The notes under the pieces were generated by a model. That model was not told the DNA's origin. It saw nothing but the letters and a program-made list of their open reading frames with translations, and did no database searches. The position numbers and the translations under genes are program-made. This document shows, piece by piece, positions 23,139 through 42,089 of a stretch of DNA of 64,000 bases. Every line of letters starts with the position of its first letter. Position 1 is the stretch's first letter. Origin of the DNA: Escherichia coli (GTDB taxonomy: Bacteria; Pseudomonadota; Gammaproteobacteria; Enterobacterales; Enterobacteriaceae); the NCBI RefSeq assembly GCF_003334335.1, contig NZ_QOWQ01000019.1; one strand, 5' to 3'.

Positions 23139-26100
23139 ATGATTACTATTGACGGTAATGGCGCGGTTGCTTCGGTCGCATTTCGCACCAGTGAAGTTAT
23201 CGCCATCTACCCTATTACCCCCAGTTCCACGATGGCAGAACAGGCTGATGCCTGGGCCGGAAACGGCTTAAAGAACGTTTGGGGAGACACACCACGCGTG
23301 GTTGAAATGCAGTCGGAAGCGGGTGCTATCGCTACCGTGCATGGCGCTTTGCAGACGGGTGCCCTTTCAACATCGTTTACGTCATCGCAGGGTTTGCTGC
23401 TGATGATCCCGACGCTGTACAAACTGGCAGGCGAACTAACACCGTTTGTCCTGCATGTAGCGGCACGTACCGTTGCCACACATGCACTCTCTATTTTTGG
23501 CGATCATTCCGACGTTATGGCGGTGCGCCAGACGGGTTGCGCGATGTTGTGTGCAGCAAACGTCCAGGAAGCGCAAGACTTTGCTCTCATTTCGCAAATC
23601 GCGACGCTGAAAAGCCGCGTGCCATTTATTCATTTCTTTGATGGTTTCCGCACGTCCCACGAAATCAATAAAATTGTCCCGCTGGCCGATGACACGATTC
23701 TTGATCTCATGCCGCAGGTCGAAATTGATGCTCATCGCGCCCGGGCACTCAACCCGGAACATCCGGTGATCCGCGGTACGTCCGCCAATCCTGACACTTA
23801 TTTCCAGTCTCGCGAAGCCACCAACCCATGGTACAACGCGGTCTATGACCATGTTGAACAGGCGATGAATGATTTCTCTGCCGCGACAGGTCGTCAGTAT
23901 CAGCCGTTTGAATATTACGGGCATCCGCAAGCGGAACGGGTGATTATCCTGATGGGCTCTGCCATTGGCACCTGTGAAGAAGTGGTTGATGAATTGCTAA
24001 CCCGTGGCGAAAAAGTTGGCGTGCTGAAAGTTCGCCTGTACCGCCCCTTCTCCGCTAAACATTTACTGCAAGCTCTGCCGGGATCCGTACGCAGCGTGGC
24101 GGTACTGGACAGAACCAAAGAACCCGGTGCCCAGGCAGAACCGCTCTATCTGGATGTAATGACCGCACTGGCAGAAGCCTTTAATAATGGCGAGCGCGAA
24201 ACTCTGCCCCGTGTCATTGGTGGGCGCTATGGTCTTTCATCCAAAGAATTTGGCCCAGACTGTGTACTGGCGGTATTTGCCGAGCTCAACGCGGCTAAAC
24301 CGAAAGCGCGCTTTACGGTTGGTATTTACGATGATGTGACCAATCTGTCACTGCCGTTGCCGGAAAACACCCTGCCAAACTCGGCGAAACTGGAAGCCTT
24401 GTTTTATGGCCTTGGTAGTGATGGCAGCGTTTCCGCGACCAAAAACAATATCAAGATTATCGGTAATTCCACGCCGTGGTACGCACAGGGCTATTTTGTT
24501 TACGACTCCAAAAAGGCGGGCGGCCTGACGGTTTCTCACCTTCGAGTGAGCGAACAGCCGATTCGTTCCGCTTATCTCATTTCCCAGGCTGATTTTGTTG
24601 GCTGCCACCAGTTGCAGTTTATCGATAAATATCAGATGGCTGAGCGTTTAAAACCTGGCGGCATTTTCCTGCTCAACACGCCGTACAGCGCAGATGAAGT
24701 GTGGTCGCGCTTGCCGCAAGAAGTTCAGGCCGTGTTAAACCAGAAAAAAGCGCGCTTCTATGTGATTAACGCGGCGAAAATCGCCCGCGAATGTGGCCTG
24801 GCGGCCCGTATTAATACCGTCATGCAGATGGCTTTTTTCCATCTGACGCAAATTCTGCCTGGCGATAGCGCCCTCGCAGAATTGCAGGGTGCGATTGCCA
24901 AAAGTTACAGTAGCAAAGGCCAGGATCTGGTGGAACGCAACTGGCAGGCTCTGGCGCTGGCGCGTGAATCCGTAGAAGAAGTTCCGTTGCAACCGGTAAA
25001 TCCGCACAGCGCCAATCGACCGCCAGTGGTTTCCGATGCCGCCCCTGATTTCGTGAAAACCGTAACCGCTGCGATGCTCGCCGGGCTTGGTGACGCCCTC
25101 CCCGTTTCGGCGCTGCCGCCAGACGGCACCTGGCCGATGGGCACTACGCGCTGGGAAAAACGCAATATCGCCGAAGAGATCCCCATCTTGAAAGAGGAAC
25201 TCTGTACCCAATGTAACCACTGCGTTGCCGCTTGCCCACACTCAGCTATTCGCGCAAAAGTGGTGCCGCCTGAAGCGATGGAAAACGCCCCTGCCAGCCT
25301 GCATTCGCTGGATGTGAAATCGCGTGATATGCGCGGGCAGAAATATGTCTTGCAGGTGGCACCGGAAGATTGCACCGGTTGTAACCTGTGCGTCGAAGTT
25401 TGCCCGGCGAAAGACCGTCAGAATCCAGAGATTAAAGCCATCAATATGATGTCTCGCCTGGAACATGTCGAAGAAGAGAAAATCAATTACGATTTCTTCC
25501 TCAACCTGCCAGAAATCGACCGTAGCAAACTGGAACGTATTGATATTCGTACATCGCAGCTGATTACACCGCTGTTTGAATATTCAGGTGCTTGCTCCGG
25601 TTGTGGCGAGACGCCGTATATTAAATTACTGACTCAGCTCTATGGCGACCGGATGTTGATCGCTAACGCCACTGGCTGTTCTTCAATTTATGGCGGTAAC
25701 CTGCCCTCTACACCGTATACCACCGATGCCAACGGTCGTGGGCCGGCATGGGCGAACTCTCTATTTGAAGATAATGCCGAATTTGGCCTTGGTTTCCGCC
25801 TGACGGTCGATCAACACCGTGTCCGCGTGCTGCGTCTGCTGGATCAATTTGCCGATAAAATCCCGGCGGAATTACTGACGGCGTTGAAATCAGACGCCAC
25901 GCCAGAGGTTCGTCGTGAACAGGTTGCAGCTTTACGCCAGCAACTCAACGATGTTGCCGAAGCACATGAACTGCTACGTGATGCAGATGCACTGGTGGAA
26001 AAATCAATCTGGCTGATTGGTGGTGATGGCTGGGCTTACGATATCGGCTTTGGCGGTCTGGATCATGTATTGAGTTTGACGGAAAACGTCAACATTCTGG

Positions 26101-26663
26101 TGCTGGATACGCAATGCTATTCCAACACCGGTGGTCAGGCGTCGAAAGCGACACCGCTGGGTGCAGTAACTAAATTTGGCGAGCACGGCAAACGTAAAGC
26201 GCGTAAAGATCTTGGCGTCAGTATGATGATGTACGGTCATGTTTATGTGGCGCAGATTTCTCTCGGCGCGCAGCTGAACCAGACGGTGAAAGCGATTCAG
26301 GAAGCGGAAGCGTATCCGGGGCCATCGCTGATCATTGCTTATAGCCCGTGTGAAGAGCATGGTTACGATCTGGCACTCAGCCACGACCAGATGCGCCAAC
26401 TCACAGCTACCGGCTTCTGGCCGCTATATCGCTTTGATCCGCGTCGTGCCGATGAAGGCAAACTGCCGCTGGCCTTGGATTCACGCCCGCCGTCAGAAGC
26501 ACTGGAAGAAACGTTACTTCACGAGCAACGTTTCCGTCGGCTGAATTCGCAGCAGCCAGAAGTGGCAGAACAGTTATGGAAAGATGCTGCAGCTGATTTG
26601 CAAAAACGCTATGACTTCCTGGCACAAATGGCCGGAAAAGCGGAAAAAAGCAACACCGATTAA
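23139..26663 (+). CDS. ydbK: Pyruvate:flavodoxin/ferredoxin oxidoreductase (PFOR)
   Basis: 1174-aa ORF with 4Fe-4S ferredoxin Cys motifs (CTQCNHCVAACP, CTGCNLCVEVCP) and a thiamine-pyrophosphate-binding region (GGDGWAYDIGFGG). Confidence 0.95.
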   Translation: MITIDGNGAVASVAFRTSEVIAIYPITPSSTMAEQADAWAGNGLKNVWGDTPRVVEMQSEAGAIATVHGALQTGALSTSFTSSQGLLLMIPTLYKLAGELTPFVLHVAARTVATHALSIFGDHSDVMAVRQTGCAMLCAANVQEAQDFALISQIATLKSRVPFIHFFDGFRTSHEINKIVPLADDTILDLMPQVEIDAHRARALNPEHPVIRGTSANPDTYFQSREATNPWYNAVYDHVEQAMNDFSAATGRQYQPFEYYGHPQAERVIILMGSAIGTCEEVVDELLTRGEKVGVLKVRLYRPFSAKHLLQALPGSVRSVAVLDRTKEPGAQAEPLYLDVMTALAEAFNNGERETLPRVIGGRYGLSSKEFGPDCVLAVFAELNAAKPKARFTVGIYDDVTNLSLPLPENTLPNSAKLEALFYGLGSDGSVSATKNNIKIIGNSTPWYAQGYFVYDSKKAGGLTVSHLRVSEQPIRSAYLISQADFVGCHQLQFIDKYQMAERLKPGGIFLLNTPYSADEVWSRLPQEVQAVLNQKKARFYVINAAKIARECGLAARINTVMQMAFFHLTQILPGDSALAELQGAIAKSYSSKGQDLVERNWQALALARESVEEVPLQPVNPHSANRPPVVSDAAPDFVKTVTAAMLAGLGDALPVSALPPDGTWPMGTTRWEKRNIAEEIPILKEELCTQCNHCVAACPHSAIRAKVVPPEAMENAPASLHSLDVKSRDMRGQKYVLQVAPEDCTGCNLCVEVCPAKDRQNPEIKAINMMSRLEHVEEEKINYDFFLNLPEIDRSKLERIDIRTSQLITPLFEYSGACSGCGETPYIKLLTQLYGDRMLIANATGCSSIYGGNLPSTPYTTDANGRGPAWANSLFEDNAEFGLGFRLTVDQHRVRVLRLLDQFADKIPAELLTALKSDATPEVRREQVAALRQQLNDVAEAHELLRDADALVEKSIWLIGGDGWAYDIGFGGLDHVLSLTENVNILVLDTQCYSNTGGQASKATPLGAVTKFGEHGKRKARKDLGVSMMMYGHVYVAQISLGAQLNQTVKAIQEAEAYPGPSLIIAYSPCEEHGYDLALSHDQMRQLTATGFWPLYRFDPRRADEGKLPLALDSRPPSEALEETLLHEQRFRRLNSQQPEVAEQLWKDAAADLQKRYDFLAQMAGKAEKSNTD

Positions 26664-26692
26664 ATGCTCTGGATAAGGATTATCCAATTCTA

Positions 26693-26802
26693 AAAAAAAA
26701 GCCCGGACGACTGTTCGGGCTTGTCTTTTTATATGTTGGAAAATCAGTGGCAATGCAATGGCCCAACAGAAAATAAAATCTGTGACAATAAAGGCATATA
26801 AC
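26693..26802 (-). ncRNA. micC: MicC, Hfq-dependent sRNA repressing ompC
   Basis: The reverse complement reads GTTATATGCCTTTATTGTCACAGATTTTATTTTCTGTTGGGCC...AAGCCCGAACAGTCGTCCGGGCTTTTTTT, matching MicC as recalled, in the conserved ompN-ydbK intergenic position; the terminator hairpin also serves ydbK on the + strand. Confidence 0.85.
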
Positions 26803-27029
26803 CCGCGCAGAATAACGTATAGCAAATTAAAAGTATAATTTTTATTTTGTATGTATTATCTTCGATACATTCACCAGACTTATTATCATTTCAGAGGAAT
26901 TATTTGATTAAGGTTTTACTTAAGGCGTAACAAATGATATTTATCGGCTAACTGAACTTCTCCTTTAGGATGTTTTCACTCCCCGAAATGGGGATAAAAG
27001 GCAAATAAAATAACTAAAGGATTTATTCA

Positions 27030-28163
27030 ATGAAAAGCAAAGTACTGGCACTTTTAATTCCTGCCCTGCTCGCCGCAGGTGCTGCACATGCAGCCGAAGT
27101 TTATAATAAAGACGGCAACAAATTAGATCTGTATGGCAAAGTTGATGGCCTGCATTATTTTTCTGATAATTCAGCGAAAGATGGCGACCAGAGCTATGCG
27201 CGTCTGGGTTTTAAAGGCGAAACCCAAATTAACGATCAACTCACTGGCTACGGTCAATGGGAATACAATATTCAGGCAAACAACACTGAATCTTCAAAAA
27301 ACCAGTCATGGACCCGTCTGGCATTTGCCGGGCTGAAATTTGCAGATTACGGTTCTTTCGATTACGGACGTAATTATGGCGTAATGTACGACATCGAAGG
27401 CTGGACCGATATGCTGCCTGAATTTGGCGGTGACTCTTATACCAATGCAGACAACTTTATGACTGGTCGAGCCAATGGCGTCGCGACTTATCGTAATACT
27501 GATTTCTTCGGTCTGGTAAATGGTCTGAACTTCGCGGTGCAGTATCAAGGTAACAACGAAGGAGCCAGTAATGGTCAGGAAGGCACCAACAACGGACGTG
27601 ATGTTCGCCATGAAAACGGTGACGGCTGGGGTCTTTCCACAACATATGATTTAGGCATGGGCTTTAGCGCTGGTGCGGCATACACCTCTTCTGACCGCAC
27701 CAATGACCAGGTTAACCATACTGCGGCGGGTGGTGATAAAGCAGACGCGTGGACTGCTGGGCTAAAATACGATGCTAACAATATTTACCTGGCAACCATG
27801 TATTCAGAAACGCGTAATATGACCCCGTTTGGCGACAGCGATTATGCTGTGGCAAACAAAACCCAGAATTTTGAAGTCACTGCACAGTACCAGTTTGATT
27901 TTGGTCTGCGTCCGGCAGTCTCTTTCCTGATGTCTAAAGGCCGTGACCTGCACGCTGCGGGTGGTGCAGACAACCCGGCAGGTGTTGATGATAAAGATCT
28001 GGTTAAATACGCCGATATTGGCGCGACTTACTATTTCAATAAAAACATGTCCACCTACGTTGACTATAAAATCAACCTGTTGGATGAAGATGACAGCTTC
28101 TACGCTGCCAATGGCATCTCTACCGATGATATTGTCGCTTTAGGTCTGGTTTATCAGTTCTAA
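27030..28163 (+). CDS. ompN: OmpN, OmpC/OmpF-family general porin
   Basis: 377-aa ORF with signal peptide [21 protein letters not shown] and a porin C-terminus ending LVYQF. Confidence 0.9.
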
Positions 28164-28172
28164 ATCCTCCTG

Positions 28173-28196
28173 CCCGCTGTTATGGCGGGCTTTTTC
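28173..28196 (+). terminator. Intrinsic terminator after ompN
   Basis: gcccgc-tgttat-ggcgggc followed by ttttt. Confidence 0.7.
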
Positions 28197-28222
28197 TGCT
28201 TATTCTTCCTCCTTTGATCTAA

Positions 28223-28738
<516 letters not shown>

Positions 28739-28745
28739 CACTAAC

Positions 28746-28771
28746 GCCCGCACATTGCTGCGGGCTTTTTG
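28746..28771 (+). terminator. Intrinsic terminator after uspF
   Basis: gcccgca-cattgc-tgcgggc followed by ttttt. Confidence 0.7.
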
Positions 28772-28914
28772 ATTCATTTCGCAAATGTGCTGACATTTTC
28801 CCCTCTAATCCGTACCATACACGCCACAGTTTTTTATATCAGATTTCTTATGCTGGGCGTTCCGGCATGACGCATACTCTTCTGATGCCATATAACGAAT
28901 TGAGTCGCTTTTAA

Positions 28915-29850
28915 ATGTCGCAAAATCAAGAAATTAGTAAGAAAGAACAATACAACCTGAACAAATTACAAAAACGTCTGCGTCGTAACGTGGGCGAAGC
29001 CATTGCTGACTTCAATATGATTGAAGAAGGCGATCGCATCATGGTTTGCCTCTCCGGGGGTAAAGACAGCTATACCATGCTGGAGATTCTGCGCAATTTG
29101 CAGCAAAGCGCGCCAATCAATTTTTCGCTGGTGGCTGTTAACCTCGATCAAAAGCAACCGGGCTTCCCGGAACACGTTCTGCCCGAGTATCTTGAAAAGC
29201 TGGGCGTTGAGTACAAGATTGTTGAAGAGAATACTTACGGTATCGTGAAAGAGAAGATTCCAGAGGGCAAAACCACTTGCTCACTGTGTTCTCGCCTTCG
29301 TCGCGGTATCCTTTATCGTACCGCAACGGAACTGGGGGCGACGAAGATCGCGTTGGGTCACCATCGTGACGATATCCTGCAAACGTTGTTCTTAAATATG
29401 TTCTACGGCGGTAAGATGAAAGGTATGCCTCCGAAACTGATGAGCGATGATGGCAAACATATCGTTATTCGTCCGCTGGCCTACTGCCGCGAGAAAGATA
29501 TTCAGCGATTTGCCGATGCAAAAGCGTTCCCGATTATTCCGTGCAACCTGTGCGGTTCACAGCCTAACCTGCAACGTCAGGTGATTGCTGACATGTTGCG
29601 TGACTGGGATAAACGTTATCCAGGGCGTATCGAGACGATGTTCAGCGCGATGCAGAATGTGGTGCCGTCGCATCTGTGCGATACCAACCTGTTCGATTTC
29701 AAAGGCATCACCCACGGTTCTGAAGTGGTTAACGGGGGTGATCTGGCGTTTGATCGCGAAGAGATCCCACTACAACCGGCGTGCTGGCAGCCAGAAGAAG
29801 ATGAAAATCAGTTGGATGAGTTACGGCTGAATGTGGTTGAAGTGAAATAA
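28915..29850 (+). CDS. ttcA: TtcA, tRNA 2-thiocytidine(32) synthetase
   Basis: 311-aa ORF with PP-loop SGGKDS and CxxC motifs. Its N-terminus ([17 protein letters not shown]) differs from the K-12 TtcA N-terminus as I recall it ([17 protein letters not shown]). Confidence 0.9.
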
Positions 29851-29858
29851 CCAGGATA

Positions 29859-29932
29859 GCGCCCGATGCGCAAGCGTATCGGGCTACTCTTATGGAGGCC
29901 GGATAAGACGCGGCCAGCGTCGCATCCGGCAA
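29859..29932. repeat. REP (repetitive extragenic palindromic) elements between ttcA and dbpA
   Basis: Two imperfect palindromes of REP type: gcccgatgcgcaagcgtatcgggc and gccggataagacgcggccagcgtcgcatccggc. Confidence 0.7.
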
Positions 29933-29978
29933 TCCCGAATAAGATGTTTACTCTTGCACCCGGCAATTCAACATTTCA

Positions 29979-31352
29979 TTATTTTAATAACCGCACCCGG
30001 CACGTTTTTCCTTTAATCTTCCCGCCCTGTAACTGTTTCCATGCTTTATGAGCAACAGCCTGACGGACCGCGACATAGACATGCGCCGGATGCACGGCGA
30101 TTTTGCCAATATCTGCGCCATCAAGCCCGATATCTCCTGTCAGTGCACCTAATACATCACCCGGGCGCATTTTGGCTTTTTTCCCGCCATCGATACACAA
30201 CGTTGCCATTTCTGCTTCCAGCGTCGCAATGGAACTATTAGCTGGCGGCGTTTGCCAGTTAAGTTTTATCTGCAACATGTCAGAAATGATATTGGCCCGC
30301 TGTGCTTCTTCCGGAGCACAGAAACTGATCGCCAGACCGCTATTTCCTGCACGAGCTGTACGACCGATGCGATGTACATGAACTTCAGGGTCCCACGCCA
30401 GCTCAAAGTTCACCACCAGCTCAAGCGATTTAATATCCAGACCACGCGCAGCAACATCAGTCGCGACCAGTACACGGGCGCTACCGTTAGCAAAACGTAC
30501 CAGGGTCTGATCGCGATCGCGTTGCTCCAAATCGCCGTGTAATGACAATGCACTTTGCCCTACTTCATTCAGCGCGTCGCAGACAGCCTGGCAATCTTTT
30601 TTGGTATTGCAAAACACCACGCAAGAGGATGGCTGATGCAAGCTTAATAACCGTTGCAACAGAGGAATTTTGCCTTTGCTGGATGTCTCATAAAATTGTT
30701 GTTCAATGGGTGGCAAAGCATCTGTTGAGTCAATTTCAATCGCCAAAGGATCGCGTTGCACTCGTCCGCTGATTGCAGCGATGGCTTCCGGCCAGGTTGC
30801 CGAAAACAGAAGCGTCTGTCGAGATGCAGGCGCAAAACGGATGACATCATCAATGGCATCGCTAAATCCCATATCCAGCATGCGGTCGGCCTCATCCATC
30901 ACCAGCGTATTCAACGCATCCAGTGATACCGTGCCTTTTTGCAGGTGATCCAGCAAACGCCCCGGCGTTGCCACGATAATATGCGGCGCATGTTGCAACG
31001 AATCACGCTGCATACCGAACGGTTGACCACCGCACAACGTCAAAATTTTGGTATTTGGCAGAAAACGCGCCAGCCGACGCAATTCACCTGCCACCTGATC
31101 CGCCAGTTCACGCGTAGGACACAGCACTAAAGCCTGGGTTTGAAATAGCGACGCATCAATTTGCTGTAACAAGCCGAGGCCAAAAGCCGCCGTTTTGCCG
31201 CTGCCGGTTTTCGCCTGCACGCGAACATCTTTTCCGGCAAGGATCGCCGGAAGCGCGGCGGCCTGCACCGGCGTCATGGTTAAATAACCCAACTCATTAA
31301 GGTTCGTGAGTTGGGCGGGAGGCAAAACATTCAGGGTAGAAAAAGCGGTCAC
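29979..31352 (-). CDS. dbpA: DbpA, ATP-dependent DEAD-box RNA helicase specific for 23S rRNA
   Basis: 457-aa ORF with DEAD-box motifs (AKTGSGKT, DEAD, SAT) and a C-terminal RNA-binding domain. Confidence 0.9.
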   Translation of the reverse strand: MTAFSTLNVLPPAQLTNLNELGYLTMTPVQAAALPAILAGKDVRVQAKTGSGKTAAFGLGLLQQIDASLFQTQALVLCPTRELADQVAGELRRLARFLPNTKILTLCGGQPFGMQRDSLQHAPHIIVATPGRLLDHLQKGTVSLDALNTLVMDEADRMLDMGFSDAIDDVIRFAPASRQTLLFSATWPEAIAAISGRVQRDPLAIEIDSTDALPPIEQQFYETSSKGKIPLLQRLLSLHQPSSCVVFCNTKKDCQAVCDALNEVGQSALSLHGDLEQRDRDQTLVRFANGSARVLVATDVAARGLDIKSLELVVNFELAWDPEVHVHRIGRTARAGNSGLAISFCAPEEAQRANIISDMLQIKLNWQTPPANSSIATLEAEMATLCIDGGKKAKMRPGDVLGALTGDIGLDGADIGKIAVHPAHVYVAVRQAVAHKAWKQLQGGKIKGKTCRVRLLK

Positions 31353-31612
31353 AATCTATTCTCGTGGTCATCGACGCAAAGTTAGCAGGCGCGTATCCTC
31401 GCAGATCTACGCTCACGATGCGACAATTTAATCGGTTCTTCATCGGGTGGTGGGTCAGGCATGGGTTGCGGGCGAGGGATCGGATCGGGCACTGGAACAG
31501 GATCGCCAGGAATCGGTTCAGGGACAGGAATTTGCAAATAAATAAGTGTCGTCATATTTCCCTCTGGTCATTGGGTGGACTCTTAAAGGGTAGACGCTGA
31601 TAAATAACAGGC

Positions 31613-31734
31613 AAAAAAAAGCCGACTCATCAAAGTCGGCGTCGTACGAATCAATTGTGCTATGCAGTAATTCAAAAAAGGAAGTAAGACAATATGGAGC
31701 GCAACGCCCATCGCTTGACGTTGCATTCACCTGC
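31613..31734 (-). ncRNA. fnrS: FnrS, FNR-activated Hfq-dependent sRNA
   Basis: The reverse complement reads GCAGGTGAATGCAACGTCAAGCGATGGGCGTTGCGCTCCATATTGTCTTACTTCC...GCCGACTTTGATGAGTCGGCTTTTTTTT (122 nt), in the conserved zntB-dbpA intergenic position. Confidence 0.85.
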
Positions 31735-31769
31735 AAGAGAGATATTGCCCTGAATGGGTAGAGAGTTTA

Positions 31770-31783
31770 TTGACTTCGCTCAA
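31770..31783 (-). promoter_or_regulatory. FNR box (TTGAGcgaaGTCAA) about 42 bp upstream of the fnrS 5' end
   Basis: Matches the FNR consensus TTGAT-N4-ATCAA at class II spacing relative to the inferred fnrS start. Confidence 0.75.
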
Positions 31784-31829
31784 ACTTTGCGGCGTTTTTG
31801 TATACAGACAGCCGGAAAAATTGCTTTTG

Positions 31830-32834
<1,005 letters not shown>

Positions 32835-33067
32835 TTATTTTGTAGTCTAGCCTTCTGGCCCTGTTACGCAACATCTCATCACCCCATTACCCTGAAATGA
32901 TTAATAAAATTCTGTCTAAATTGAATACAAAAAGCAAAATGCTTTTCCGTATACAAACCGTGTGAAGTGTTAAATAGCGTCTATCATTATCAGAATTATC
33001 TGATCATATGACGTGGCTTTTTTGCGATCGGATAGCAACAAAAATTGATAAAAATAACGGGATCTCA

Positions 33068-34300
33068 ATGATTACGCACAACTTCAATACCCTGGACTTA
33101 CTCACCAGTCCTGTCTGGATCGTTTCGCCCTTTGAGGAACAGTTAATTTATGCCAATAGCGCGGCGAAACTGTTGATGCAAGACCTCACGTTTAGTCAGC
33201 TACGAACCGGACCCTATTCCGTCTCCTCACAAAAAGAACTGCCGAAATACCTCTCCGATCTGCAAAACCAACACGATATTATCGAAATCCTCACTGTTCA
33301 GCGTAAAGAAGAGGAAACAGCATTGAGCTGTCGGCTTGTTTTGCGAAAGCTGACAGAAACAGAACCGGTGATTATTTTCGAAGGTATCGAAGCGCCGGCA
33401 ACGCTGGGTTTAAAAGCCAGTCGCTCGGCAAATTATCAGCGCAAAAAACAAGGTTTTTATGCGCGCTTTTTTCTGACTAACTCTGCACCAATGTTGTTGA
33501 TTGACCCGTCACGAGATGGACAAATCGTCGATGCTAACCTCGCCGCGCTCAATTTCTATGGTTATAACCATGAAACGATGTGCCAGAAACATACCTGGGA
33601 AATAAATATGCTCGGGCGTCGCGTCATGCCTATCATGCATGAAATCTCGCATTTACCCGGTGGTCATAAACCTTTGAATTTTGTTCATAAACTGGCGGAT
33701 GGTTCGACTCGTCATGTGCAGACCTATGCCGGACCGATTGAAATTTATGGCGACAAGCTCATGTTATGTATTGTGCATGATATTACTGAGCAAAAACGGC
33801 TGGAGGAGCAGCTGGAACATGCTGCTCACCATGACGCGATGACCGGATTACTGAATCGGCGACAGTTTTATCACATTACGGAACCAGGCCAAATGCAGCA
33901 TCTCGCCATCGCTCAGGATTACAGCTTGTTGCTCATCGACACCGATCGTTTTAAACACATTAACGATCTCTATGGGCATTCTAAAGGTGATGAGGTGTTA
34001 TGCGCCCTCGCCCGCACCCTCGAAAGTTGCGCTCGCAAAGGCGATTTGGTGTTTCGTTGGGGAGGCGAAGAGTTTGTCTTATTGCTACCAAGAACCCCAC
34101 TGGATACCGCGCTTTCGCTGGCTGAAACTATCCGCGTAAGCGTGGCAAAAGTGAGTATTTCGGGCTTACCACGCTTTACCGTCAGCATTGGTGTGGCGCA
34201 TCACGAAGGAAATGAAAGCATCGATGAACTGTTTAAACGCGTTGATGATGCTTTGTATCGGGCGAAAAATGATGGACGCAACCGCGTGCTGGCGGCATAA
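33068..34300 (+). CDS. dgcM: DgcM (YdaM), PAS-GGDEF diguanylate cyclase
   Basis: ORF with PAS domains and a GGEEF active site (VFRWGGEEFVLL); I placed the start at the internal Met MITHNF, giving 410 aa. Confidence 0.85.
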   Translation: MITHNFNTLDLLTSPVWIVSPFEEQLIYANSAAKLLMQDLTFSQLRTGPYSVSSQKELPKYLSDLQNQHDIIEILTVQRKEEETALSCRLVLRKLTETEPVIIFEGIEAPATLGLKASRSANYQRKKQGFYARFFLTNSAPMLLIDPSRDGQIVDANLAALNFYGYNHETMCQKHTWEINMLGRRVMPIMHEISHLPGGHKPLNFVHKLADGSTRHVQTYAGPIEIYGDKLMLCIVHDITEQKRLEEQLEHAAHHDAMTGLLNRRQFYHITEPGQMQHLAIAQDYSLLLIDTDRFKHINDLYGHSKGDEVLCALARTLESCARKGDLVFRWGGEEFVLLLPRTPLDTALSLAETIRVSVAKVSISGLPRFTVSIGVAHHEGNESIDELFKRVDDALYRAKNDGRNRVLAA

Positions 34301-34320
34301 GCCGCGGATGCGTCTCGAGA

Positions 34321-34884
34321 TCAACGACTGCGCTTAGCGTGGCGCTCCCAGTTTTCTTGCTTCGCCTGCGCCGTTTTACGTAGTGCGACGTAACACGCCC
34401 CGCTGCCGCCATGATGCGGTAGCGCGGTGCAATATGCCTGAACATCATCAAATTCGGTCAGCCAGCGCGCCACATAGCTGCGGACAATATTGGCATGCGA
34501 TTTATCATCCCGCCCTTTACCATGAATAATCAGCACGTTACGCAAACCATCCGCCAGGGCTTGTTGAATAAAACTGAACACCATTTTGCGGCACTCTTCC
34601 ACCGGCTGGCGCAAAAGATTCAGGCTCGCCTGTTGCGGATATTTACCACTGCGCAGCTTATCCAGCACCCCATGTTGCAACCCTTCCCGCCGAAACTCCA
34701 GCGGCTGACTTAGTGGGATGATGTCGAGAAATCCGGTGGTGAGGAAATTATCAAGCTGCAGCGTGTCGATACGCTGCGGCGCACGTTGGTTACGCGTTGG
34801 ATGCCAGTGGACATCGGTAGCACGTTTCAGCGGCTGGACATCTTCCATGGCGTCAAGAAACAGCGATTTGTCGTCAAGGTTCAT
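34321..34884 (-). CDS. smrA: SmrA (YdaL), Smr-domain DNA endonuclease
   Basis: 187-aa ORF with an Smr domain (LIIHGKGRD...). Confidence 0.8.
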   Translation of the reverse strand: MNLDDKSLFLDAMEDVQPLKRATDVHWHPTRNQRAPQRIDTLQLDNFLTTGFLDIIPLSQPLEFRREGLQHGVLDKLRSGKYPQQASLNLLRQPVEECRKMVFSFIQQALADGLRNVLIIHGKGRDDKSHANIVRSYVARWLTEFDDVQAYCTALPHHGGSGACYVALRKTAQAKQENWERHAKRSR

Positions 34885-35111
34885 GTTACATCCTCCCGCA
34901 ATTAAGAGCGCGATATGATAACCAGACCGGGTCGGTCCAACAACGTATTACCCAAATTTCCAGTAATAAGTTCCAAATATTGCCGATATTTTAAGCAAAA
35001 TACTTATGCATGATTATTCATTCACGATATTAATAATGTAACTTATATTTTCGTGAAATCTGTCACTGAAGAAAATTGGCAACTAAAGGTTAAAACCGTT
35101 ATAACACAGTC

Positions 35112-35206
35112 ACCGGCGCAGAGGAGACAATGCCGGATTTAAGACGCGGATGCACTGCTGTGTGTACTGTAGAGTCTGGCGGATGTCGACAGACTCTATT
35201 TTTTTA
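35112..35206 (+). ncRNA. mcaS: McaS (IsrA), Hfq/CsrA-binding sRNA
   Basis: ACCGGCGCAGAGGAGACAATGCCGGATTTAAGACGCGGATGCACTGCTGTGTGTACTGTAGAGTCTGGCGGATGTCGACAGACTCTATTTTTTT (95 nt with a terminal hairpin and T-run), in the conserved smrA-abgR intergenic position. Confidence 0.7.
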
Positions 35207-35213
35207 TGCAGTT

Positions 35214-36122
35214 TTAACTTTGCAGATAGCCGCATTCTCGCCGGAATTGCGTGATTAATGACGCGGTCAGTGGTGTCTGGCGACTATCACGCCGCTGAAT
35301 CAAATAATAGGCCGCTTTCGGTAAAATTTCGCTAACCGGCAACATCACCAGCCCCTGTCCGTGCAAGGGATCGCAGCCCATTTCTTCAGGCAGTATGCTG
35401 AGAAAATCGCTTTTTGCCACCAGACTGATACAGGCTGAGAACGTCTCGCAGACTACACCGACCTGTGGCGTTTGCGCCTGATCGTCAAGCAATTCACTCA
35501 ACTGTTTGTAGTAGCTGCCGTGTGGCGTCGGCATTGTCCAGCTGTAATCCAGTAACTGTTTGATCGAACGGGCACCAATGGCGGGGTGTCCCGGGCGGCA
35601 AAAGATCGCGAATTGCTTTTCCAGTAATTTCTCAAAAGTAAATTCGTGGTCGTACGGTCCCTGATAATAGGTATTGATGGTGAAATCCAATTCTCCCTGA
35701 CGCAATTCATTAATCATCGACACCAGTTGCCCTTCCATAATGCGTACTTTTACCTGCGGATGCTGCTGATGAAAACGAGATATGACAGCTGGCATCAGAC
35801 TGCGGGAAATACTGGCCCCCATGCCGATATTAATCTGCCCTGCCAGTTGCCCTTGTCGTTGGCGAATATCCTCTTGGGCTGCGCGCAGCTCTTCAAGAAT
35901 TAGACTGGCGTGCTGATAAAAACTTTCACCGGCATCAGTTAACGTCACGCCTTTACTACGGCGAAAAAAGAGTTGCGCCGCTAACCCTTCTTCTAGCTCC
36001 TGAATAGATTTACTCAGTGCCGGTTGCGACATATTCAACATTCGGCTCGCTCCGCGAATGCTGCCCTGACGAGCCACTTCAACAAAAGCCCGAATTTGAT
36101 GAATTTTTACCTGAAAAGCCAT
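35214..36122 (-). CDS. abgR: AbgR, LysR-family regulator of the abg operon
   Basis: 302-aa LysR-type ORF with an N-terminal helix-turn-helix, divergent from abgA. Confidence 0.85.
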   Translation of the reverse strand: MAFQVKIHQIRAFVEVARQGSIRGASRMLNMSQPALSKSIQELEEGLAAQLFFRRSKGVTLTDAGESFYQHASLILEELRAAQEDIRQRQGQLAGQINIGMGASISRSLMPAVISRFHQQHPQVKVRIMEGQLVSMINELRQGELDFTINTYYQGPYDHEFTFEKLLEKQFAIFCRPGHPAIGARSIKQLLDYSWTMPTPHGSYYKQLSELLDDQAQTPQVGVVCETFSACISLVAKSDFLSILPEEMGCDPLHGQGLVMLPVSEILPKAAYYLIQRRDSRQTPLTASLITQFRRECGYLQS

Positions 36123-36297
36123 GACGCCACCGATAACCGTTATTTATCAGACCAAAGAAACTGGCATCTACTTTAATGCAGATGATTGTGTCAGGGTAAT
36201 TTATGAACGGTTAAAACTGTGAAAAATCAGTTAGTGATAAGTAAAAACTATCGCTACGTGAACCGGGTCACACTTTTTACTGATGACGGGAAAGGTT

Positions 36298-37608
36298 ATG
36301 GAGTCTTTGAATCAATTTGTTAATTCGCTTGCCCCAAAATTATCGCACTGGCGACGTGATTTTCATCACTATGCAGAGTCTGGCTGGGTGGAATTCCGCA
36401 CTGCCACCCTTGTTGCGGAAGAATTGCACCAGCTCGGCTATTCACTGGCGCTGGGTCGCGAAGTAGTTAATGAAAGTAGCCGGATGGGATTACCTGATGA
36501 ATTCACTCTACAACGCGAATTCGAGCGCGCTCGTCAACAGGGTGCGCTAGCACAATGGATTGCGGCTTTTGAAGGTGGTTTCACTGGTATCGTCGCCACC
36601 CTGGATACCGGTCGCCCCGGTCCGGTGATGGCTTTCCGTGTCGATATGGACGCGCTGGATCTCAGTGAAGAGCAGGATGTCAGCCATCGCCCCTACCGCG
36701 ACGGTTTTGCGTCATGTAACGCCGGAATGATGCATGCCTGTGGTCATGATGGACATACCGCCATTGGGCTTGGGCTGGCGCATACCCTTAAACAGTTCGA
36801 GTCCGGACTACATGGCGTCATCAAACTGATTTTTCAGCCTGCAGAGGAAGGTACGCGTGGCGCGCGGGCGATGGTCGATGCAGGTGTCGTAGATGATGTT
36901 GATTATTTTACTGCCGTGCACATTGGCACTGGCGTACCTGCGGGCACCGTGGTGTGCGGCAGTGATAATTTTATGGCAACCACCAAATTTGACGCGCACT
37001 TCACCGGTACCGCCGCTCACGCAGGCGCAAAACCAGAAGACGGTCACAATGCCTTGTTGGCGGCAGCACAAGCCACTCTTGCACTGCATGCAATCGCCCC
37101 GCACAGCGAAGGAGCTTCCAGAGTAAACGTGGGCGTTATGCAGGCAGGAAGCGGTCGTAACGTTGTTCCTGCCTCGGCGTTGCTGAAAGTGGAAACACGC
37201 GGGGCCAGCGACGTCATTAATCAATATGTTTTTGACCGTGCACAACAAGCGATTCAGGGCGCAGCAACCATGTATGGTGTCGGCGTTGAAACTCGTCTGA
37301 TGGGTGCAGCTACCGCCAGTTCTCCTTCGCCGCAATGGGTCGCATGGTTGCAAAGTCAGGCGGCTCAGGTCGCGGGGGTCAATCAGGCCATTGAACGTGT
37401 TGAAGCGCCTGCGGGTTCCGAAGATGCCACATTAATGATGGCCCGCGTGCAGCAACATCAAGGGCAAGCCTCCTACGTGGTGTTTGGCACACAGCTGGCG
37501 GCAGGTCATCACAACGAAAAATTCGATTTTGACGAGCAGGTTCTCGCTATTGCCGTCGAAACGCTGGCGCGCACCGCGCTCAATTTTCCCTGGACGCGAG
37601 GTATCTGA
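36298..37608 (+). CDS. abgA: AbgA, p-aminobenzoyl-glutamate hydrolase subunit A (M20 peptidase)
   Basis: 436-aa M20-family amidohydrolase from the internal Met MESLNQ; the longest ORF starts at 36283. Confidence 0.85.
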   Translation: MESLNQFVNSLAPKLSHWRRDFHHYAESGWVEFRTATLVAEELHQLGYSLALGREVVNESSRMGLPDEFTLQREFERARQQGALAQWIAAFEGGFTGIVATLDTGRPGPVMAFRVDMDALDLSEEQDVSHRPYRDGFASCNAGMMHACGHDGHTAIGLGLAHTLKQFESGLHGVIKLIFQPAEEGTRGARAMVDAGVVDDVDYFTAVHIGTGVPAGTVVCGSDNFMATTKFDAHFTGTAAHAGAKPEDGHNALLAAAQATLALHAIAPHSEGASRVNVGVMQAGSGRNVVPASALLKVETRGASDVINQYVFDRAQQAIQGAATMYGVGVETRLMGAATASSPSPQWVAWLQSQAAQVAGVNQAIERVEAPAGSEDATLMMARVQQHQGQASYVVFGTQLAAGHHNEKFDFDEQVLAIAVETLARTALNFPWTRGI

Positions 37609-39053
37609 TGCAGGAAATCTATCGTTTTATCGACGATGCGATTGAAGCCGATCGCCAACGTTATACCGATATTGCCGATCAAATCTGGGATCATCCAGAA
37701 ACACGTTTTGAAGAGTTCTGGTCAGCGGAGCATCTGGCTTCGGCGCTGGAATCTGCAGGCTTCACCGTTACCCGCAACGTAGGCAATATCCCAAATGCCT
37801 TTATTGCTTCGTTTGGTCAAGGCAAACCGGTTATCGCCCTGCTGGGAGAATATGACGCCCTGGCAGGTTTAAGTCAGCAAGCAGGTTGCGCGCAACCTAC
37901 ATCCGTGACGCCCGGTGAAAATGGTCACGGTTGCGGACACAATTTGCTGGGAACCGCCGCCTTTGCCGCTGCAATAGCCGTCAAGAAATGGCTGGAACAA
38001 TATGGGCAAGGCGGCACGGTGCGCTTTTATGGTTGTCCTGGCGAAGAAGGCGGCTCGGGTAAAACGTTCATGGTTCGCGAGGGGGTATTTGATGATGTGG
38101 ATGCGGCACTCACCTGGCACCCGGAAGCCTTTGCCGGTATGTTCAATACCCGCACGCTGGCAAACATTCAGGCATCATGGCGCTTTAAAGGGATCGCAGC
38201 ACATGCCGCGAATTCCCCTCATTTGGGACGCAGCGCCCTTGATGCCGTAACGTTGATGACCACTGGCACCAACTTCCTCAACGAACATATTATTGAAAAA
38301 GCGCGCGTACACTATGCCATCACAAATAGCGGCGGGATCTCGCCCAACGTGGTCCAGGCGCAGGCAGAAGTGCTTTATCTTATCCGCGCCCCCGAAATGA
38401 CCGACGTGCAGCATATTTATGATCGGGTCGCCAAAATCGCCGAAGGTGCGGCATTGATGACCGAAACCACGGTTGAATGCCGCTTCGACAAAGCCTGTTC
38501 CAGTTATCTCCCGAATCGCACCTTAGAAAATGCCATGTACCAGGCCCTATCCCATTTTGGTACCCCGGAATGGAACTCCGAAGAACTGGCTTTTGCGAAA
38601 CAAATTCAGGCTACGCTCACCTCCAACGATCGGCAAAACAGTCTGAATAATATCGCCGCAACCGGTGGCGAAAACGGCAAGGTTTTTGCACTACGTCATC
38701 GTGAAACGGTACTGGCGAATGAAGTCGCTCCATATGCCGCCACCGATAACGTGCTTGCGGCATCGACTGATGTCGGCGACGTCAGTTGGAAACTGCCTGT
38801 TGCCCAGTGTTTCAGCCCCTGTTTTGCCGTCGGTACACCGCTACATACGTGGCAACTGGTTAGCCAGGGGCGAACATCTATTGCTCATAAAGGAATGCTG
38901 CTGGCGGCGAAAACTATGGCAGCAACCACAGTCAATCTCTTCCTTGATTCAGGGCTATTGCAAGAATGCCAACAAGAGCATCAGCAAGTAACGGACACGC
39001 AACCGTATCACTGCCCTATCCCGAAAAACGTGACACCGTCACCTTTAAAATAA
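37608..39053 (+). CDS. abgB: AbgB, p-aminobenzoyl-glutamate hydrolase subunit B (M20 peptidase)
   Basis: 481-aa M20-family ORF whose start overlaps the abgA stop (TGATG). Confidence 0.85.
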   Translation: MQEIYRFIDDAIEADRQRYTDIADQIWDHPETRFEEFWSAEHLASALESAGFTVTRNVGNIPNAFIASFGQGKPVIALLGEYDALAGLSQQAGCAQPTSVTPGENGHGCGHNLLGTAAFAAAIAVKKWLEQYGQGGTVRFYGCPGEEGGSGKTFMVREGVFDDVDAALTWHPEAFAGMFNTRTLANIQASWRFKGIAAHAANSPHLGRSALDAVTLMTTGTNFLNEHIIEKARVHYAITNSGGISPNVVQAQAEVLYLIRAPEMTDVQHIYDRVAKIAEGAALMTETTVECRFDKACSSYLPNRTLENAMYQALSHFGTPEWNSEELAFAKQIQATLTSNDRQNSLNNIAATGGENGKVFALRHRETVLANEVAPYAATDNVLAASTDVGDVSWKLPVAQCFSPCFAVGTPLHTWQLVSQGRTSIAHKGMLLAAKTMAATTVNLFLDSGLLQECQQEHQQVTDTQPYHCPIPKNVTPSPLK

Positions 39054-41142: not shown

Positions 41143-41336
41143 ACATTAAACAATTTGTGCCAGCTTGTTCACACTTTTATGTAAAGTTACCCTTAACAAC
41201 TTAAGGGTTTTCAAATAGATAGACATATATTTACATCTAATATCGGAATTCTCTGCTGTTAAGGTTTGCTTAGACTTACTTGCTCCCTAAAAAGATGTTA
41301 AAATTGACAAATATCAATTACGGCTTGAGCAGACCT

Positions 41337-42089
41337 ATGATCCCGGAAAAGCGAATTATACGGCGCATTCAGTCTGGCGGTTGTGCTATCCATTGCCAGG
41401 ATTGCAGCATCAGCCAGCTTTGCATCCCGTTCACACTCAACGAACATGAGCTTGATCAGCTTGATAATATCATTGAGCGGAAGAAGCCTATTCAGAAAGG
41501 CCAGACGCTGTTTAAGGCTGGTGATGAACTTAAATCGCTTTATGCCATCCGCTCCGGTACGATTAAAAGTTATACCATCACTGAGCAAGGCGACGAGCAA
41601 ATCACTGGTTTCCATTTAGCAGGCGACCTGGTGGGATTTGACGCCATCGGCAGCGGCCATCACCCGAGCTTCGCGCAGGCGCTGGAAACCTCGATGGTAT
41701 GTGAAATCCCGTTCGAAACGCTGGACGATTTGTCCGGTAAAATGCCGAATCTGCGTCAGCAGATGATGCGTCTGATGAGCGGTGAAATCAAAGGCGATCA
41801 GGACATGATCCTGCTGTTGTCGAAGAAAAATGCCGAGGAACGTCTGGCTGCATTCATCTACAACCTGTCCCGTCGTTTTGCCCAACGCGGCTTCTCCCCT
41901 CGTGAATTCCGCCTGACGATGACTCGTGGCGATATCGGTAACTATCTGGGCCTGACGGTAGAAACCATCAGCCGTCTGCTGGGTCGCTTCCAGAAAAGCG
42001 GCATGCTGGCAGTCAAAGGTAAATACATCACCATCGAAAATAACGATGCGCTGGCCCAGCTTGCTGGTCATACGCGTAACGTTGCCTGA
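41337..42089 (+). CDS. fnr: FNR, oxygen-sensing global transcription regulator
   Basis: 250-aa CRP/FNR-family ORF from the internal Met [29 protein letters not shown], which contains the N-terminal Fe-S cysteine cluster. Confidence 0.95.

Follow-up and report, generated by a model that had tools for sequence, protein, structure and literature searches.

Intact genes for the Hfq-binding small RNAs MicC, FnrS and McaS in a 64-kb Escherichia coli chromosomal window, and a candidate bidirectional terminator between micC and nifJ

Gene content and gene order

The window, by which we mean the whole 64-kb stretch of DNA analysed here, is a segment of an Escherichia coli chromosome. Many complete E. 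coli chromosomes contain, at 100% identity, the 11-kb slice that surrounds three small RNA (sRNA) loci, and all but nine of the complete E. coli genomes (5417/5426) match it at least in part. Gene positions were taken from the annotation of an identical genome and mapped onto the window. The order begins with nifJ (ydbK, +), which converges on micC (-), and continues with ompN (+), uspF, ttcA, dbpA (-), ynaL (-), fnrS (-), zntB (-), ynaN, dgcM, smrA (-) and mcaS (+), the last of which converges on abgR (-). The coordinates of the main features are collected in Table 1.

This gene order is that of K-12, except that the 23-kb Rac prophage is missing. In K-12 this cryptic prophage is inserted into ttcA at its 5' end, some 2 kb past ompN-uspF; in the window ttcA (28915-29850) is intact and adjoins uspF. 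Because Rac is absent, micC and fnrS are 5 kb apart here and 28 kb apart in K-12. The IS5 element located between ynaI and ynaJ in K-12 is likewise missing from the window. The initial annotation, made from the sequence, had placed the three sRNA genes in their conserved positions, and the synteny is indeed canonical for each of them.

The fnrS-zntB unit is bordered by two very small annotated open reading frames. The proline-rich ynaL (31382-31555, -, 57 aa) shares the strand of fnrS and begins about 57 nt beyond its terminator; ynaN (32827-32874, -, 15 aa) is situated directly upstream of zntB.

Table 1. Coordinates of the sRNA genes, their regulatory and pairing segments, and adjoining genes in the window
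Feature	Position	Strand	Remarks
nifJ (ydbK), pyruvate:flavodoxin oxidoreductase	23139..26663	+	convergent with micC; stop codon 26661-26663
micC (MicC sRNA, 109-111 nt)	26692..26802	-	+1 = G at 26802; Rfam and identity to K-12 b4427
G+C-rich hairpin: MicC intrinsic terminator, candidate nifJ/ydbK terminator	26699..26722	both	terminator scan, folding, conservation
MicC 5' seed (nt 1-22), ompC leader pairing	26781..26802	-	complementarity, conservation
ompN porin gene	27030..28163	+	divergent from micC
fnrS (FnrS sRNA, 122 nt)	31613..31734	-	+1 = G at 31734; Rfam and identity to K-12 b4699
FNR site TTGACttcgCTCAA	31770..31783	palindrome	centre 42.5 nt upstream of fnrS +1, class II activation position
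mcaS (isrA/IS061), 95 nt	35112..35206	+	Rfam and identity to K-12 b4426
McaS nt 40-55, csgD 5' UTR complement	35151..35166	+	16-nt perfect Watson-Crick run to csgD -96..-81
abgR	stop codon 35214-35216	-	convergent with mcaS

Identification of the three sRNA genes

The whole window was scanned with cmscan against Rfam 15 at gathering thresholds, and exactly three matches exceeded the gathering score. MicC (RF00121) was matched at 26685-26805(-) with 125.0 bits against a gathering score of 90 (E 2e-19, model positions 1-123 of 123). FnrS (RF01796, named frnS in Rfam) was matched at 31617-31734(-) with 134.8 bits against 60 (E 4e-24, model positions 1-119 of 119), and McaS/IsrA (RF00115) at 35112-35207(+) with 118.4 bits against 42 (E 2e-21, model positions 1-96 of 96). 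All three matches are thus full length and untruncated. Pairwise alignment furthermore showed that each gene is 100% identical to its counterpart in K-12 MG1655, including the promoter and about 80 nt on each side, without an insertion or deletion in any of the three. The curated MG1655 record lists micC (b4427), fnrS (b4699) and mcaS (b4426) as ncRNA genes of the corresponding region.

The same three sRNAs had been named in the initial annotation, and both the covariance-model search and the base-for-base identity to K-12 corroborate that assignment. That the matches are chance resemblances, or belong to a mis-assigned family, has a vanishingly small probability: it is refuted by E-values of 2e-19 to 4e-24, complete coverage of the models, scores 35-76 bits above gathering and identity to the curated genes. 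The boundaries proposed at the outset (26693-26802, 31613-31734 and 35112-35206) also held, being at most 1 nt off the ends mapped from K-12. The difference falls inside the 3' U-run and is within normal 3'-end heterogeneity; for mcaS, the K-12 boundaries correspond to 35112-35205(+), or to 35206 for the published 95-nt form. We add the strands, which were absent from that annotation: minus for micC and fnrS, and plus for mcaS.

A permissive Rfam scan for additional RNAs (E<=1, positions 24000-38000) returned sub-threshold noise only, including a match to an archaeal snoRNA with an E-value of 0.6 that was rejected. Weak matches to naRNA4 (RF02564), below threshold and on both strands, coincide with a REP-like palindromic element at 29897-29935 between the convergent ttcA and dbpA genes. 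Over the span of the window, the curated K-12 annotation holds no other ncRNAs outside the Rac prophage, which is itself missing here. The list of three is therefore complete by the K-12 standard.

Folded as single sequences, the three RNAs give z-scores of -1.7 to -2.3, modest values of a kind usual in sRNAs. Their terminators are Rho-independent and end in 7-9 U. With a promoter of its own as well, each sRNA gene would be transcribed as a separate unit of about 95-122 nt.

Base pairing with target mRNAs was assessed with the ompC, csgD and sodB leaders of K-12 rather than those of the strain's own genome. Whole-molecule RNAduplex predictions were discarded, as they ignore intramolecular structure and so give unrealistically long duplexes; only restricted seed tests and counts of perfect runs were therefore relied on. 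Every defining feature that can be tested on sequence was found for MicC, FnrS and McaS, apart from the FnrS/sodB pairing result described below.

MicC and its pairing with ompC

The 5' end of MicC is strongly complementary to the ompC leader. Nucleotides 1-16 are a perfect complement of K-12 ompC -30..-15, and nucleotides 1-22 form a duplex with ompC (-47..-14) with a dG of -26.5 kcal/mol that none of 300 dinucleotide shuffles equalled. A 22-bp MicC-ompC duplex that blocks 30S binding has been published, and both Hfq binding by MicC and Hfq-dependent repression of OmpC are known from the literature (PMC5745476). With its invariant 5' 22 nt, MicC would accordingly base-pair to the stretch of the ompC leader that directly precedes the ribosome-binding site and so block 30S binding.

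Conservation was examined in 30 species-representative genomes that comprise Citrobacter, Salmonella, Superficieibacter, Pseudocitrobacter and other Escherichia. MicC nt 1-21 (GUUAUAUGCCUUUAUUGUCAC) are exactly conserved in this set. The MicC terminator stem (AAGCCCGAAC/GUUCGGGCUU) and its tail of 7-10 U are invariant or nearly so, and one closing pair of the stem shows a compensatory change from C-G to U-A. When the 30 genes were aligned with MAFFT and folded with RNAalifold, the invariant terminator hairpin was the only structure recovered. Sequence alignment of the variable central stem-loop is too poor for a covariation test, and the Rfam model was relied on for it instead. The gene neighborhood is similarly stable. 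In 29 of the 30 other genomes nifJ is convergent and ends about 140 nt after the MicC +1 on the opposite strand, and in 24 of them ompN is divergent upstream of micC. Among the remaining six, four loci end short of the ompN site and two are Salmonella subspecies without an ompN match.

In the window, the MicC terminator is Rho-independent and has a 9-U tail; a terminator of this kind with a U tail is expected of Hfq-binding sRNAs. The gene itself does not differ from K-12 micC, with which it shares its sequence and promoter, neighbors, ompC seed and terminator.

A hairpin possibly shared by the ends of micC and nifJ

The G+C-rich hairpin that terminates MicC lies 35 nt past the nifJ stop codon and folds on both strands. 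The layout at 26691-26732 is AAAAAAAAA-hairpin-GTCTTTTTAT: with an A-run before the hairpin and a U-run after it, either strand presents a hairpin and then a U-run. On the MicC side, nine A on the plus strand provide the 9-U tail at 26692-26700 of the minus strand. On the nifJ side, the plus strand forms a perfect 10-bp stem followed by GUCUUUUUAU, and its tail GTCTTTTTAT has 6 T in 8 nt with a GUC interruption. A simple terminator scan flags this hairpin on the plus (nifJ) strand, and it is the only terminator-like hairpin in the interval from the nifJ stop codon to micC.

At the MicC terminator the window has the allele of K-12: the MicC-strand stem reads GUCCGGGCUU, with an A.C mismatch, where 28 of the 30 genomes read GUUCGGGCUU. 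Seen from nifJ, the mismatched position is occupied by a G.U pair, which makes the stem more regular in the nifJ direction and the stability of the hairpin strand-asymmetric.

The initial annotation had called this hairpin a bidirectional terminator shared with ydbK. Part of that description stands, as the hairpin folds on both strands and stands between an A-run and a T-rich tail. The tail, however, is not conserved outside Escherichia: the hairpin stem is invariant in the 30 genomes, and the nifJ-side tail reaches 5-6 T per 8 nt in Escherichia only, with counts of 4 for Citrobacter and Salmonella and 2 for Superficieibacter. Judged from these counts, the bidirectional form of the MicC hairpin is not conserved in the other genera.

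It is possible, though less likely than not, that the hairpin is the terminator of MicC only and that nifJ/ydbK transcription ends elsewhere, for example through Rho or by read-through into micC antisense. The restriction of the T-rich tail to Escherichia speaks for this, since fewer T's in the other genera indicate that termination in the nifJ direction is not a conserved feature. The tail T's are moreover the complement of an A/U-rich stretch 5' of the MicC terminator and may be constrained by MicC alone, and searching the literature for a bidirectional terminator of micC and ydbK turned up only unrelated uses of the term. These points are countered by the perfect plus-strand stem and its tail, which pass the terminator scan, and by the proximity of the hairpin to the nifJ stop codon, with no competing hairpin between the two. 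We infer that in Escherichia the MicC hairpin may also stop convergent nifJ transcription, which is structurally plausible, if unproven.

One could go further and speculate that the Escherichia MicC terminator was remodelled to serve nifJ as well, as a strand-asymmetric bidirectional terminator in which some MicC terminator strength was traded for nifJ termination. The T-rich nifJ-strand tail in Escherichia and the K-12-type A.C/G.U substitution suggest this scenario, which we nevertheless consider unlikely.

FnrS and its FNR site

FnrS opens with a stem-loop at its 5' end, followed by a C/U-rich linker and a small hairpin, and closes with a terminator hairpin (31621-31640) and 8 U. Upstream of the gene is an FNR-like box, read as TTGACTTCGCTCAA. 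The initial annotation had put an FNR box about 42 bp upstream of fnrS; its center is at -42.5, which equals the published value. Table 1 of the FNR ChIP-seq work by Myers et al. (2013) gives fnrS a peak and a site at -42.5 (PMC3688515). The box could not be called from the motif alone, because the window shows no enrichment of the FNR consensus at <=2 mismatches (44 matches versus 37 expected). The meaning of the fnrS box thus comes from its position and from the published ChIP-seq.

Anaerobic, FNR-dependent expression of FnrS is known from the literature, and the same Table 1 of Myers et al. names sodB, gpmA, cydDC and other operons as indirectly repressed via FnrS (PMC3688515). By this mechanism, FNR bound at -42.5 would switch FnrS on when oxygen is absent, and FnrS would then repress the mRNAs of enzymes that are unneeded anaerobically, such as that of sodB. 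In the predicted duplex, the C/U-rich linker pairs with the Shine-Dalgarno region of sodB. The pairing is indistinguishable from shuffled controls: 22 of 300 shuffles were as good, and the longest perfect run is 6 nt. Compared with K-12 fnrS, there is no difference in the sequence, the FNR site at -42.5 or the location between zntB and ynaL/dbpA.

The window also contains the fnr gene (41337-42089, +), whose target fnrS is about 10 kb away. An FNR box close to the consensus, with one mismatch (TTGACAAATATCAA, 41304-41317), is located 20 nt upstream of the fnr start codon and is presumably the fnr autoregulatory site.

McaS, its csgD-pairing segment and its alleles

McaS has three stem-loops and a 7-U tail. 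It contains four GGA motifs, at nt 12, 24, 37 and 70, in agreement with the four GGA motifs published for the CsrA-binding McaS (PMC10729762). The perfect 16-nt run of complementarity to the csgD 5' UTR compares with a longest run of 11 nt in 500 shuffles, and one of 300 shuffles was as good as the extended duplex. Pairing of McaS far upstream of the csgD ribosome-binding site, followed by Hfq- and RNase E-dependent cleavage, has been reported (PMC6061853), and McaS binds both Hfq and CsrA in vivo (PMC6061853, PMC10729762). The McaS encoded here would likewise pair with csgD mRNA in its leader, far ahead of the start codon, leading to RNase E cleavage, and would also bind CsrA through its GGA motifs. 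No difference from K-12 mcaS was found in the sequence, the four GGA motifs, the csgD-complementary segment or the smrA-abgR location.

The end of mcaS is 8 nt from the stop codon of the convergent abgR (35206-35216). Here the terminator hairpin has no T-run after it on the abgR strand and so, in contrast to that of micC, does not look bidirectional.

mcaS was found in 5305 of the 5426 complete E. coli genomes, but only 3905 of these matches cover >=80% of the query. The gene is dimorphic in E. coli: about 1400 of the 5305 genomes match only from around nt 21 onward. In the one such genome that was inspected, E. coli GN02461 (L003:381-476), the copy departs from the window allele at nt 7-21, in the loop of stem-loop 1. 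It retains the stem, with a U.G/C-G swap, and the loop GGA, and it still scores 112.8 bits as McaS. Its upstream neighbor is an AraC-family regulator, not smrA. The window has the K-12 allele of mcaS, and a second allele that is common in E. coli has a different stem-loop-1 loop.

Distribution and standing of the three genes

fnrS is present in 5393 of the 5426 complete E. coli genomes, in 5390 of them at >=99% identity. micC was detected in 4911 and undetected in 515, and in E. coli E08 it is broken after nt 52 by an IS1 element (L004:1501-1552). From its lack of detection in these genomes and its interruption in E08, MicC is dispensable in nature, in contrast to the near-universal fnrS.

This dispensability gives some footing to the idea that the sRNA genes are relics in this strain, in the form of silent or decayed copies. 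The idea is nonetheless very improbable, given that all three, with their promoters and about 80 nt of flanking sequence, match functional K-12 alleles base for base and without indels. We conclude, with a probability of about 0.97, that the three loci are orthodox E. coli genes for the trans-acting, Hfq-binding sRNAs MicC, FnrS and McaS. They are intact and do not differ from the alleles studied experimentally in K-12. What the sequence establishes is that the genes are there and whole, their identity and synteny, where the promoter element lies, and the seed complementarity of MicC to ompC and of McaS to csgD; Hfq and CsrA binding, FNR activation and the regulatory effects are known from published work. 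The identification of these sRNAs is already known, and nothing new about them follows from it.

The practical value lies in annotation and little in discovery, since these sRNAs are among the best characterised in enterobacteria. The initial annotation had anticipated that ORF-based annotation would miss them, and RefSeq/PGAP has no feature under micC, fnrS or mcaS in the identical genome or among the sampled matches listed. An ORF-based reading of the window consequently leaves about 330 nt of functional, regulated genes unlabelled, and known sRNAs such as these could be recognised from raw sequence to within 1 nt.

A deletion in the phenylacetate operon

Elsewhere in the window, a 7.3-kb deletion inside the phenylacetate (paa) operon removes paaB-paaJ and fuses paaA to paaK in frame, with the junction at 9121/9122. 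The resulting open reading frame (7813-9996, -) encodes 727 aa that correspond roughly to PaaA 1-292 and PaaK 3-437. Only five of the 5426 complete E. coli genomes (H37-H41) have this junction, and a further 3165 match its two halves at separate places.
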